Shown: one piece after another, positions 471-6,913 of the stretch
Layout: each line of letters begins with the position of its first letter
Position numbering within the stretch: position 1 is the stretch's first letter
Assembly: GCA_013239625.1 (NCBI GenBank)
Contig: MU057060.1
Coordinates: 132,893-196,892 of the forward strand
Reading direction: 5' to 3'
Source: Lama guanicoe
Lineage: Eukaryota
DNA: 64,000 nt
The notes under the pieces: generated by a model
Database searches by the model: none
Told to the model about the DNA's origin: nothing
Seen by the model: only the letters and a program-made list of their open reading frames with translations
Program-made: the position numbers and the translations under genes

Positions 471-639
471 AACCTTGAGGGGAAGCAGCATAAACCACAC
501 ATGACATATGCACCCGTCTTCCAGAAATAACAAAGAGAAAGTCGCCATTTGAAGGGAGCCAAGTTCACAGGATCCAGCTGCTGGAAGGTGATTCTGCAAA
601 CGCATTTGTAAAACCCCTGCCCGATGGCAGCTAAATTGC
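471..639 (-). pseudogene. Putative exon, 169 nt
   Basis: Acceptor ctccccctttgtag-like tract; donor GTT|gtaagt; joins the 1062-1198 exon in phase 2 (R-QFSCHRAGVLQMRLQNHL...). Confidence 0.6.
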
Positions 640-1061
640 CTACAAAGGGAGACAGTCCACTCCTGAATCCTAAATGGAAAACCACCCTGCCTTCATCAGC
701 TCTGTTGAGAATTGTCTTTTTTTTTTTTAAATCTCTCTCCTCTCCGAGTTTAAAGGGGGTCCCTTGCCACCTCGGAAGCTCCCGCAGCCAAGGGACTGCA
801 CACTTGGAGGGCTGCCTTCAGCAGTGAGGATGCAAACCATTCTCTCTTCCCTGCTTGTGACATTTACAGAAGCAGCCGCTTCCCAAGGGGCTGACTCACA
901 CGTCGTGGCCCTTGCAGCCAGCCCCAAGCCCCCTGCTCCTGCCAGGCTGACGGAGACACGCAGGTGAAGGTGGACAGGATCCGTCTCCTGACACTGAGGA
1001 CAGTGTGACAGGAGGCCGAGTGTGCCTGGCCCTGACGCCCGGACCAAGCTCACTCACATAC

Positions 1062-1198
1062 CTGCGTCCCTGCTTCTCCGTCTCCATCCTGTCTGTGAGG
1101 CTTGGGTCATCTTGCAGAGAAACGACTTGTTCAGCCTCCCCTGTCAAGACCGCCCCCTTAGCACATCCCACCTTTGGCATTTTGGGGACAGCGAGGAT
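1062..1198 (-). pseudogene. Putative exon, 137 nt, with degraded GAG acceptor
   Basis: Long pyrimidine tract tttgtctttttgctcccttttctgcccgag|; donor CAG|gtatgt; frame ILAVPKMPKVGCAKGAVL...KQGR. Confidence 0.55.
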
Positions 1199-1936
1199 CT
1201 CGGGCAGAAAAGGGAGCAAAAAGACAAACGCTCCCCGCAGCCCCCGGTCCTATAAGCCGTTCCGTTTCTCACAGCCCCCGGCCCGTCTCATTTGGCCTCA
1301 TTAAAACCCACCCAAAGCGTCTCTTCTCTGCTCGAGAATAGTCCTTTCAAAATGCATCTTTGTGGGGAGGATTGTTCGCCACACGGGGATGGCCTCTTTG
1401 AAGCTCTAGCAGATTGTAGCTCATTGCACTTCTCAGTGTGTAGCCGTGGTCCTCAGTTACAAGGAGAGCCAAGGCTTCTTACAGGAACTGGCGAAAAGTG
1501 GACACTGTTACGTATTTTCCCTTTTGGTGTGAGAGTTTTGGAAAGGAAGCTACAGTATCAAATATGTTACCCAGCAGATAACTGTATCTGTGCTCTCTGC
1601 ATCCAGCGGGGAAAAAGAGGGAGGGGCAATTATTCATAATCATACTCATATTCTTGTTATCAGAGATGTTTGCAGCAGAACTGCAAGTTACTTCTCCTGT
1701 CTGGGGTACTTTTTTTAATGTTAATTTTGCTGGGAACTTGATTTGGCTTCTTGATTTCTCAGACGGAGGGGTGTTTACAGTTAGGATATTTCTATACTTG
1801 CGTCACGCCGACAAGGAAAGACCTTTCTGCATTGACTTGACTCTAATGAGTTCTCGTATTCTGATATTAGGTTTGTAGGACTTAATGACTCTGCTGATTT
1901 TTCCCCAAGCTTTTTCTTACTGGTGATTGCCGATCA

Positions 1937-2200
1937 TATAACCCAAAGAGGGAGTAAAAGTATGTAAAAACGAGGCTGCCGGCCACAGGCACACTTTTCA
2001 TGGGGGCTCCAAACCAAATCCACTCATATAAGAGAGATGCATGTCCTCATCCAGGGCTTTTTTTTTTTTTTATAACCCAAAGGTAAAAGTATGTAAAAAC
2101 GAGGCTGCCGGCCACAGGCACACTTTTCGTGGGGGCTCCAAACCAAATCCACTCATATAAGAGAGATGCATGTCCTCATCCAGGGCTTTTTTTTTTTTTT
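1937..2200. repeat. Tandem duplication, ~130-134 bp x2, each copy ending in poly-T
   Basis: 1937-2070 and 2071-2200 are identical except a 5-bp indel (aaagagggagtaaaag vs aaaggtaaaag), one A/G change and T-run length. Confidence 0.95.
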
Positions 2201-2466
2201 AAGAAATGGAAAATAAGCCGGAAATATGTTATTTACAAACTCTAACCGAGGTGCACTGATATGCAACTATTTAAGGGAGCCCGTTCAAACACCCTCTAAA
2301 ACACGCATATGTGAAGCGCGGCCCCTGAAGCACTCACAGCAAATAAAACAGCGTAGGTCAGACTTGTGGACGTGTCCGCCCAGAGCCAGTGAGGGTGTTT
2401 CCGCTGGGAGAGTCCTCTGGGAGGGAACTTTTCAAGGCAGCAAAGTTGGGTATAAAAATGCCTCAC

Positions 2467-3444: not shown

Positions 3445-3862
3445 AGCAGGAATGTGTCTGTCAGCTGCGTAATGGACGAGGAAACCGTGGCCTAGGTATA
3501 CAGAGGAATGGTGCTGTCGTAAAGAAGGGAAGCCCTGGCACCGGCTACAGTGTGGGTGCACTCTGAGAACTCTAGGCTCAGCGAGAGAAGCAACACACAC
3601 AAGACCCTGTTTTGTCTGATTCTACTTGTGTGAAACATCCAAAAGAGGCAAATTGTTGGAGACGGAAAGCAGGTGCATGGTTGCTGGGGGCTGAGGGCAG
3701 CGGAGGATGGGTACGGGGTTTCTTCTGGGCCGATGACAGTCTTCAGACACCAGCGAGTCTGATGGTTGGTTGTGCTACCTCGGAAACATACCAGAAGCTA
3801 CTGGAATGTACGTGTTAACATGGTTAATTTTATGTCATATGGATTTTACCTCAATTTTAGAA
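3445..3862 (+). mobile_element. Old L1 (L1MB-type) 3' end (second copy 5631-6048)
   Basis: ...gattctacttgtgtgaaacatccaaaagaggcaaat...ggttaattttatgtcatatggattttacctcaatttt. Confidence 0.8.
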
Positions 3863-4880
3863 GAACGTCCACAGACAGCAGCCTGGAAATTCGGATTTCA
3901 CAGTTCTTGGACGAGGCTTTTCTGAAAGCTTCCCCTGGGGATTCTCAGGTGCAGCGGGGCTGGACTGAAAAGCACCGACCGGGTGGGAATTCAAAGGACA
4001 GTAAGGGAGGAAGGGTGCACACCTTGCTCTCCGGGTGTGATTCACAGGGAGGGGAGAGGAGCTTCGGACGACAAGAGGGGGCCGCTCCAGGGGGTGGGCT
4101 CAGTCCCTCTGCTCCTCAGCGTCCATGACCCAGGAACACCAGCCCAACCTGGGACCCTGTCAGCAATGGAGACCCCCCAGCCCCACCTCACGCCTCCCAG
4201 GTGACACGATCCCCGTGGTTTTCCTGCGCGCTGGAGCGTCAAAGCACCGGAGAGGACGCATACCCTCTCCAACACGTGCTTCATGGAACACTAGTGTGCA
4301 AAGAGTTACTGTCCCTTCTCCCGAGGCCAAGGGTTTCCACCGTGCGAGGGCTTTCAGGCACGCTGCTCGCACGAAAGTGGGCCACACTCACCTCTTCAGT
4401 GTCCCTGAGTCTTCAGAATCTCCTGCGTCAGATCAGTGTCCACGAGCATCACGGGGCTTGATACGTATACCCACCCCAAACGCTTTGAAAAACGGACCTC
4501 CTTTCAGAGGAGCACCTTACGAGCTGACGAGCACGCATCTTCTACAAAGACAATCTGGAAATTGCTGCCCCAGGACAATCTCCTGGACCGGCTCCGTCCA
4601 AGTCAAACTTCAGAAACCACCTTGCATATGGTAAAACTTCAAGAGCGACCCTGCCTTTCAGGACCCGAAGAGACTGAACGAGAGGCAGTAGATCCTTCTC
4701 TCATCCGCTGCTTCTGAGCCACTCCCCTGAAGAAGGGAGAGTGTATTTCCCCCCTTCCTTCGCAGACAGAGAGAGAGAGGACAGAGGATTTTAACCGTTG
4801 TCCAAAGCATCATACATACGGAAGAAACAGAAGGAGACCGGAAATCTTAAGAGAATAAATGTGACTCTGTATTTACTTCC

Positions 4881-5084
4881 GCGCTGGTTTGGGAGGAACA
4901 TCAGCGCATCACTGGTGACACAGCGATATTTACCGTACACTAAACATAACCAATAGTTCACAGACTCTCCCTTGTTCACGACTGTGTAGGTTTTCCATCC
5001 ACAGGAAGAGCTCAGACCCGGAGTATTACCCAACATGGCATCAGGAAGAAAATGTGCAAACTCTACAATCTGCTCGTTACAATC
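4881..5084 (-). pseudogene. Duplicate of the 2695-2898 exon with destroyed donor
   Basis: Donor reads CGC|ggaagt here versus CGG|gtaagt in the other copy. Confidence 0.65.
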
Positions 5085-6577
5085 CTAAACTGAGCCCAAG
5101 GAAATATTCAGAGAGGACAGCAAATAGTTATTGTCAAGGATATGCGTTGGACCCTATTTGTATTTGGGAAAAACTGGGAAAGAACAAAAGGACCCCCCTC
5201 CCTACAAAAAAAGGAATGGTTAAGTGCCTCGTGAGCTTATTTTGTCTTAGAATATCACAGATGAGGAATGAAAGTATAGTTTCAAGTAATGATTCATGAT
5301 GCGGGAAAATGCACAAGCTGTCGAGTGGCAGTATTGTCAAGTGATGACGTTGTATGTAGGACATCCCCGGAGGACTTGCCTTGAGAGGGGGCTGTCCCTG
5401 CACTGTCCCTGCCTGCCTCCAGAGCCCCTGGTTCAGGAGGTCCCAGGTGGGCAGCAAGAATTTGCACTTCCGTCAGGTCCCCAGGGGATGCCGACGCTTC
5501 TGGCCCAGGGACCCCACTGAATTAAACAGATGTGCGCTCCGAGTGTTAACAGGGACATCTTGTCTTATAGGGCCAGTGGCTGGGCATTGGACTCAATGGG
5601 AAACTTAAAAAAAAAATCAGCGTCCAGCAGAGCAGGAATGTGTCTGTCAGCTGCGTAATGGACGAGGAAACCGTGGCCTAGGTATACAGAGGAATGGTGC
5701 TGTCGTAAAGAAGGGAAGCCCTGGCACCGGCTACAGTGTGGGTGCACTCTGAGAACTCTAGGCTCAGCGAGAGAAGCAACACACACAAGACCCTGTTTTG
5801 TCTGATTCTACTTGTGTGAAACATCCAAAAGAGGCAAATTGTTGGAGACGGAAAGCAGGTGCATGGTTGCTGGGGGCTGAGGGCAGCGGAGGATGGGTAC
5901 GGGGTTTCTTCTGGGCCGATGACAGTCTTCAGACACCAGCGAGTCTGATGGTTGGTTGTGCTACCTCGGAAACATACCAGAAGCTACTGGAATGTACGTG
6001 TTAACATGGTTAATTTTATGTCATATGGATTTTACCTCAATTTTAGAAGAACGTCCACAGACAGCAACCTGGAAATTCGGATTTCACAGTTCTTGGACGA
6101 GGCTTTTCTGAAAGCTTCCCCTGGGGATTCTCAGGTGCAGCGGGGCTGGACTGAAAAGCACCGACCGGGTGGGAATTCAAAGGACAGTAAGGGAGGAAGG
6201 GTGCACACCTTGCTCTCCGGGTGTGATTCACAGGGAGGGGAGAGGAGCTTCGGACGACAAGAGGGGGCCGCTCCAGGGGGTGGGCTCAGTCCCTCTGCTC
6301 CTCAGCGTCCATGACCCAGGAACACCAGTCCAACCTGGGACCCTGTCAGCAATGGAGACCCCCCAGCCCCACCTCAGGCCTCCCAGGTGACACGATCCCC
6401 GTGGTTTTCCTGCGCGCTGGAGCGTCAAAGCACCGGAGAGGACGCATACCCTCTCCAACACGCGCTTCATGGAACACTAGTGTGCAAAGAGTTACTGTCC
6501 CTTCTCCCGAGGCCAAGGGTTTCCACCGTGCGAGGGCTTTCAGGCACGCTGCTCGCACGAAAGTGGGCCACACTCAC

Positions 6578-6913
6578 CTCTTCAGTGTCCCTGAGTCTTC
6601 AGAATCTCCTGCGTCAGATCAGTGTCCACGAGCATCACGGGGCTTGATACGTACACCCACCCCAAACGCTTTGAAAAACGGACCTCCTTTCAGAGGAGCA
6701 CCTTACGAGCTGACGAGCACGCATCTTCTACAAAGACAATCTGGAAATTGCTGCCCCAGGACAATCTCCTGGACCGGCTCCGTCCAAGTCAAACTTCAGA
6801 AACCACCTTGCATATGGTAAAACTTCAAGAGCGACCCTGCCTTTCAGGACCCGAAGAGACTGAACGAGAGGCAGTCGACACGGATAAGCCAGTCTTCCCT
6901 GAACCCCGACTCT
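6578..6913 (-). pseudogene. Putative exon, 336 nt (3' part duplicated at 4392-4689)
   Basis: Acceptor atctcctcttgctttag|; donor GAG|gtgagt; contains IRVDCLSF and RSVFQSVWGGCTYQ in different frames; several stops. Confidence 0.6.

Follow-up and report, generated by a model that had tools for sequence, protein, structure and literature searches.

Exon-like segments in Lama guanicoe as possible remnants of a dead gene with a free ZP-N array

Introduction

Arrays of free ZP-N (zona pellucida N-type) domains have been described in egg-coat proteins such as ZP2 and ZPAX. Here we analyze a group of exon-like segments, named A to F, that lie on the minus strand within the first 6,913 positions of a 64,000-nucleotide stretch of DNA from Lama guanicoe (assembly GCA_013239625.1, contig MU057060.1, positions 132,893 to 196,892), hereafter the window. 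A preliminary description, made from the letters of this DNA, had taken these segments for exons of a lost extracellular multi-ZP-N protein. We propose, at a probability of roughly 0.55, that they are what is left of a dead gene with a free ZP-N array of the N1-N2-N3 type of ZP2 and CIROZ. There is modest support for a decayed multi-exon gene at the locus. Membership in the ZP-N family was neither confirmed nor refuted, and the family call is unproven.

ZP2 has three free ZP-N domains, of which only the first has both disulfides, N2 and N3 being without the C2-C3 bond (bioRxiv 2023.06.21.544075). This contradicts the pattern of four cysteines in each ZP-N repeat that had been expected of the present segments. 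The gene proposed here would share with ZP2 the free N1-N2-N3 array, but ZP2 is kept in mammals (PMC8005149) and no ZP2 chain was among the PDB matches obtained in this study. ZPAX also carries tandem free ZP-N domains (PMC9154058; bioRxiv 2023.06.21.544075); it is described as lost across placentals, with pseudogenes reported in human, chimpanzee, macaque and cow (PMC8005149). Free ZP-N repeats are as dissimilar to each other as they are to modular ones, and those of ZP1 and ZP2 have roles in cross-linking or binding (PMC9154058).

ZPY has a ZP2-like domain architecture (bioRxiv 2023.06.21.544075). Its presence among amniotes is patchy: birds and alligators have pseudogenes, and a homologue is reported from elephant (Feng et al. 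2018, PMC6262864). A review counts it only in monotremes among mammals (PMC8005149). The available parts of PMC13361971 and PMC8830517 hold no further information on ZPY structure. Architecture and patchy presence both suit the proposed gene, but ZPY needs a ZP module, and none is found in the window. CIROZ (C1orf127) takes its name from its ZP-N domains (PMC12807706), is secreted, and is required for left-right patterning in mouse (PMC13634566). Even-toed ungulates are reported to have lost it (bioRxiv 2024.09.03.611012), and the gene described here is broken in a camelid.

Results and Discussion

Candidate exons and their reading frames

Segments A, B, C, D and E have AG/GT ends on the minus strand, and segment F shows an AG start (Table 1). 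As previously proposed, B and C join in phase 0, with one stop in 104 codons. The splice of D to E has no stop in 102 codons, and when B is joined in phase to D and E a run of 170 codons without a stop results, the other two frames having 7 and 10 stops. The main frame of exon A is interrupted by four stops (at 6730, 6637, 6616 and 6601), and the length of exon C puts the frame into exon D off by one base. With these five stops (four in A, one in C) and at least two frameshifts, the locus is a pseudogene at best. It is likely, judging from the sequence, that it makes no full protein at present and, as a dead gene, would have no present function.

Table 1. Coordinates of candidate exons and direct repeats in the window. 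Splice-site scores (bits) are from a splice matrix.
Feature	Position	Strand	Description
Exon A	6578..6913	-	336 nt; acceptor 6.0, donor 7.0 bits; at least one frameshift near start
Exon B	2695..2898	-	204 nt; phase 0-0; 68 open codons; donor 6.5 bits; allelic copy at 4881-5084
Exon C	2467..2575	-	109 nt; AG/GT ends; one stop, at 2521
Exon D	1062..1198	-	137 nt; acceptor 1.9, donor 6.1 bits; open from acceptor; ends in phase 2
Exon E	471..639	-	169 nt; open in the phase given by exon D
Segment F (doubtful)	1..108	-	contains VPARCP; acceptor -3.3 bits; extends past window edge
Direct repeat	2509..6878		copies 2509-4692 and 4691-6878; 2.19 kb; 98.9% alike
Direct repeat	1937..2201		136 bp; in the C-D intron; missing in run X7 (record 19: 2071 to 2214, 14 letters between)

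All of the peptides quoted in the preliminary description were located on the minus strand where it had placed them, but not all belong to one reading frame. In exon A, IRVDCLSF and SVFQSVWGGCTYQ are both present but lie in different frames. PRCP and PKVGCAKGAV are both found in exon D; PRCP, however, overlays bases of the frame ILAVPK-MPKVGC, which is open from the exon D acceptor and needs no shift. The stretch SNGDFLF..SCVV in exon E had been read as coding, yet it does not follow the frame that the upstream splice phase dictates. In P0003, a near-identical relative that differs from the window by an indel within exon E and an accompanying frame switch, the spliced frame runs directly into FVI..SCV; SNGDFLF is thus probably a mixture of frames. 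VPARCP in segment F does not share the phase of the spliced D+E frame, and its acceptor is weak. PRCP, SNGDFLF and VPARCP are probably all wrong-frame readings. Cysteines occur in A, B, D and E (in exon B at positions 2, 28, 47 and 55), and their assignment to C1-C4 would need an alignment. In exon A the stretch VFQSVWGGC carries W where the signature Tyr is expected, and the first cysteine of A lies in another frame.

The proposed ZP-N array

In the comparison that underlies the family call, A, B+C and D+E match what we take to be the three ZP-N domains of human CIROZ, in the same order and at about 25-30% identity. Short motifs presumably lie at CIROZ-like spacing, namely VFQ..C in A, C-x10-LP and W..GE.V in B, and VPK in D; AGVLQ in exon E would be the clearest match. 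The comparison was made after the window had been seen, and priming is possible. The earlier suggestion of a CIROZ-like member stands insofar as the comparison fits a CIROZ/ZP2-type array, partly in frames other than those first quoted, but the locus is very probably not the CIROZ orthologue itself. Since an identity of this order is too low for an orthologue, we infer a paralogue.

On this putative alignment, the minus-strand exons would once have coded for the N-terminal part of the protein, made up of three free ZP-N domains. Exon A would account for most of N1, exon B for the start of N2 and B+C for N2 as a whole, and exon D for the start of N3, with D+E making up N3. Because such an array is N-terminal, A to E would be 5' exons, not the 3' exons they had been called, and the remainder of the gene would lie beyond position 1. 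Upstream there may once have been a signal-peptide exon; a ZP module or tail may lie beyond position 1.

Exon signal compared with chance

The best surviving alternative is that there is no gene, only neutral GC-rich DNA in which splice-like sites that arose by chance and cysteine motifs from mixed frames imitate one. We regard this as improbable. Of the 3 strong donors in the de-duplicated 5.1 kb, 2 open a stop-free two-exon frame of 90-100 codons, whereas the rest of the window gives 0/17 to 6/95 (Fisher p 0.005-0.017 under 5 of the 8 threshold sets). Two such donors together were found in none of 150 shuffles. With the strict setting, the best open chain has 268 codons, a length equalled in 0/200 shuffles and 0/23 real tiles; the open chain in these tests uses boundaries partly unlike those of D and E. 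Alongside these strict-threshold tests, the in-phase 170-codon join, the strong donors at A, B and D, and the putative ordered resemblance over three consecutive domains all speak against neutral DNA. Taken together, the evidence for real exons is modest.

A number of observations weigh on the other side. The splice thresholds were chosen after the sites had been seen, and in the other 3 of the 8 threshold sets the exon signal is gone (Fisher p 0.07, 0.22 and 1.0). With the lax setting the observed chain of 319 is equalled in 13/200 shuffles and 5/23 tiles, and the window has similar chains of 252 and 272 codons at other places, the latter overlapping exon A on the plus strand. In P0002, a distant relative, conservation shows no exon bias, with identities of 11/39 in exon B compared with 9/38 and 18/37 in the flanking introns; both donor sites, moreover, seem to be occupied by Gly codons in P0002. 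The donor of exon B (2693-2694) is polymorphic: one allele reads GT, whereas the other copy reads GG, as does run X7. Short motifs are frequent by chance, with 294 instances of V.C and 305 of CP in the six frames of the window; the longer patterns [YW]..C.[VYI] and F.[AVS].[YW]..C number 33 and 3, respectively. A search of 6950-30000 for a signal-peptide exon (ATG-to-donor, hydrophobic) found none, although a decayed one would be missed. Run X20, whose identity as RNA is a guess, contains no joint between the proposed exons. The homology and fold searches, which were all null (see below), point the same way.

The 252-codon chain, obtained with the strict setting, lies on the minus strand at 22716-26685 in AG/GT segments 26439-26685, 25322-25641, 23237-23335 and 22716-22807. 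Open reading frames (ORFs) overlapping it had no Pfam match, and the chain may be due to chance. Another exon-like segment, at 20484-20660 on the minus strand (acceptor 6.2, donor 6.1 bits), has two open frames and no family match. The intron stretch with 18/37 identity corresponds to 2340-2470, right after exon C, and is better kept in P0002 than exon B is.

The region is widely represented among the sequencing runs. Of the words of 400-7400, a fraction of 0.73-0.84 is present in each of 14 runs bearing five organism labels, and the exon-like segments are also present in two other DNA runs. RNA run X15 gave no real cover of the locus and no spliced contig. Cover by X20 of 2-1676 has a depth of 2.5-6 over exon and intron alike, with none over 1700-3600, and possibly derives from unspliced transcript or DNA. 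Runs X15 and X20 neither demonstrate nor exclude transcription. Within its covered part, X20 skips 54 bases at 174-227 that have plus-strand GT..AG ends, which might reflect an organism-specific deletion or a very short plus-strand intron.

Duplicated exons in the assembly

The 2.19 kb direct repeat doubles exons A, B and part of C. Its two copies are likely two alleles placed side by side, an artefact of assembly. In run X7, one contig spans 2214-4475, and another exits the window at 4689 and continues as window position 6876 onward. In run X1, two half-depth bubbles (13.7/13 and 12.8/16, compared with about 30) hold differences between the copies, and at least 14 of the 20 inter-copy substitutions appear among the X1 rows listed. 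An X1 contig of 6165 letters and depth 31.5 appears, from its coordinates, to cross 4689 intact. A true tandem duplication was rejected on the basis of these single-copy contigs in both runs. In practice, an apparent additional repeat at this locus is likely to be an assembly artefact.

The same data bear on the gene model. The four stops of exon A are untouched by the 8 differences of the 6165-letter X1 contig. X7 has exon C without a gap and an identical exon D, and of its 29 differences over 2214-4475 the 28 that are listed include none at a stop. The stops and gaps of the gene model are therefore shared.

Homology, profile and fold searches

HMMER, structure prediction and Foldseek had been expected to reveal ZP-N folds, but yielded neither a ZP-N match nor a named relative; no unrelated family was significant either, across sequence, profile and fold searches. 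The searchable queries are half-domains of decayed sequence and free ZP-N domains are highly divergent (PMC9154058), so that such searches are weak here. A one-frame translation of 451-2898, in which exon B and the end of E are the sole parts to follow a proposed frame, was compared by phmmer with 1.84 billion proteins and found no named relative. It matched three unnamed single-member clusters; one was P0002, and the other two were near-identical frames belonging to close relatives. Word searches were null for each of their queries, which were exon B, the read-through B-intron-C-A, and E, P0003 and D aligned together; they covered longer proteins only and are weak evidence. In the ESM Atlas, the best match to exon B scored 0.80 (Golvesin_C), under the recognition threshold, and P0003 1-46 had no match.

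Pfam searches with single exons and read-throughs found no ZP family, all weak matches being below the cut-offs. No ZP chain was found in PDB searches, where the best match (E 0.035) was to a bacterial peptidase E and was taken as chance. AlphaFold models from single sequences had a mean pLDDT (predicted local distance difference test) of 34.6 and 31.7, too poor for use, and Foldseek with a low-confidence model gave a best E of 0.65, with none at 0.001. Similarity between the three proposed domains was not evident in 15 pairwise tests, of which the lowest p was 0.01 (BC vs DE, p 0.31). A metagenome scan returned two loci on a 17-residue match with no DNA similarity, which were rejected as chance. 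If the frame of exon B is right, these null results speak against the existence of any close orthologue, CIROZ included, that is both intact and annotated. The literature covered, which did not extend to subscription papers, held no report of this locus.

Other gene families

A dead gene of another secreted beta-sandwich family, such as a divergent CUB-repeat protein, is an unlikely explanation of the segments. The cysteines of exon B that are 26 apart and followed by C-x-W, and the GKY..LRSSG stretch of exon C, are features that we take to be CUB-like, and the low-confidence model is almost wholly strand. CUB profiles are sensitive, however, and no CUB or other Pfam family was found on B, C, D or E with E up to 1 or 10, nor was CUB found on B+intron+C; no CUB structure was among the PDB matches.

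It is very unlikely that the locus is a pseudogene of CIROZ itself. The ZP-N domains for which CIROZ is named and its reported loss in even-toed ungulates would be in keeping with this, and the extent of decay estimated below (about 0.09 substitutions per site) would suit the timing of that loss. An orthologue, however, would be expected to be about half identical to intact mammalian CIROZ, and the 68-codon exon B matched no CIROZ protein, nor any other named one, among the 1.84 billion proteins, in libraries whose CIROZ content was unchecked. The genomic neighbourhood lends this reading no support, and no neighbour gene was identified in the window. The neighbours of CIROZ are, as we assume, CASZ1 and TARDBP, of which TARDBP would be expected upstream. 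No Pfam family above cut-off was found there in 126 minus-strand ORFs located above position 15 kb and 149/168 plus-strand ORFs (at least 60 amino acids, with L1 and other repeats masked beforehand), nor any trace of TARDBP.

We give just as little credence to the ZPAX pseudogene known from other placentals. As a dead egg-coat gene with tandem free ZP-N domains ZPAX resembles the gene proposed here, but its loss across placentals is older than the decay at this locus, on assumed rates, suggests. At 0.2-0.35 substitutions per site, again on assumed rates, a 170-codon open join would have p <=0.0001, and the putative motifs suit CIROZ better than ZPAX. ZP1 was dropped, since its intron positions and trefoil domain do not fit.

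Decay of the proposed gene and its possible role

If the segments are the remains of a ZP-N array gene, the 8-9 disabling changes in 318 codons correspond to about 0.09 substitutions per site (0.04-0.18, on assumed rates), an estimate biased young by the choice of the best-kept segments. This suggests that the gene was lost after the main placental radiation. Among named genes, ZPY might be the best candidate for the putative paralogue. We offer only tentatively the more specific possibility, which we think less probable than the array itself, that ZPY or an unnamed CIROZ paralogue was functional in the camelid placental line up to a few tens of million years before the present.

The protein would presumably have been secreted and have become part of an extracellular matrix, for example the egg coat. 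As a secreted subunit it may have polymerised via its ZP module, while binding or cross-linking would have been left to the projecting free ZP-N domains, as in ZP1 and ZP2. If the family call holds, the history of egg-coat genes in mammals would gain a dated loss. A late loss would further mean that placentals had an additional multi-ZP-N egg-coat subunit for much longer than is assumed in reviews, and that the gene may survive intact, though unannotated, in some living placentals, for instance elephant. Late, repeated losses would be favoured by a remnant kept fairly well in a camelid, and intact copies would be worth testing in oocytes.

Other features of the window

The window consists of mammalian DNA with six N gaps and numerous pieces of L1 and short interspersed elements (SINEs). 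A SINE head near 62080 resembles what we take to be the camelid Vic-1 element, which would agree with a camelid host. No match to Rfam was found. Protein-looking read-throughs with several cysteines occur on the minus strand at 13200-14200 and 8800-10000, neither with a Pfam family; readings of the former as VWD-like or ZP3-like, and of the latter as coding, were set aside for want of Pfam support. The region 26401-27200 is CpG-island-like, with a GC content of 0.60-0.64 and a CpG observed/expected ratio of 0.82-0.89, and contains a plus-strand ORF of 236 codons that has no Pfam match. A non-repetitive, AT-rich stretch at about 29000-29330 has, by eye, the look of a conserved non-coding element.

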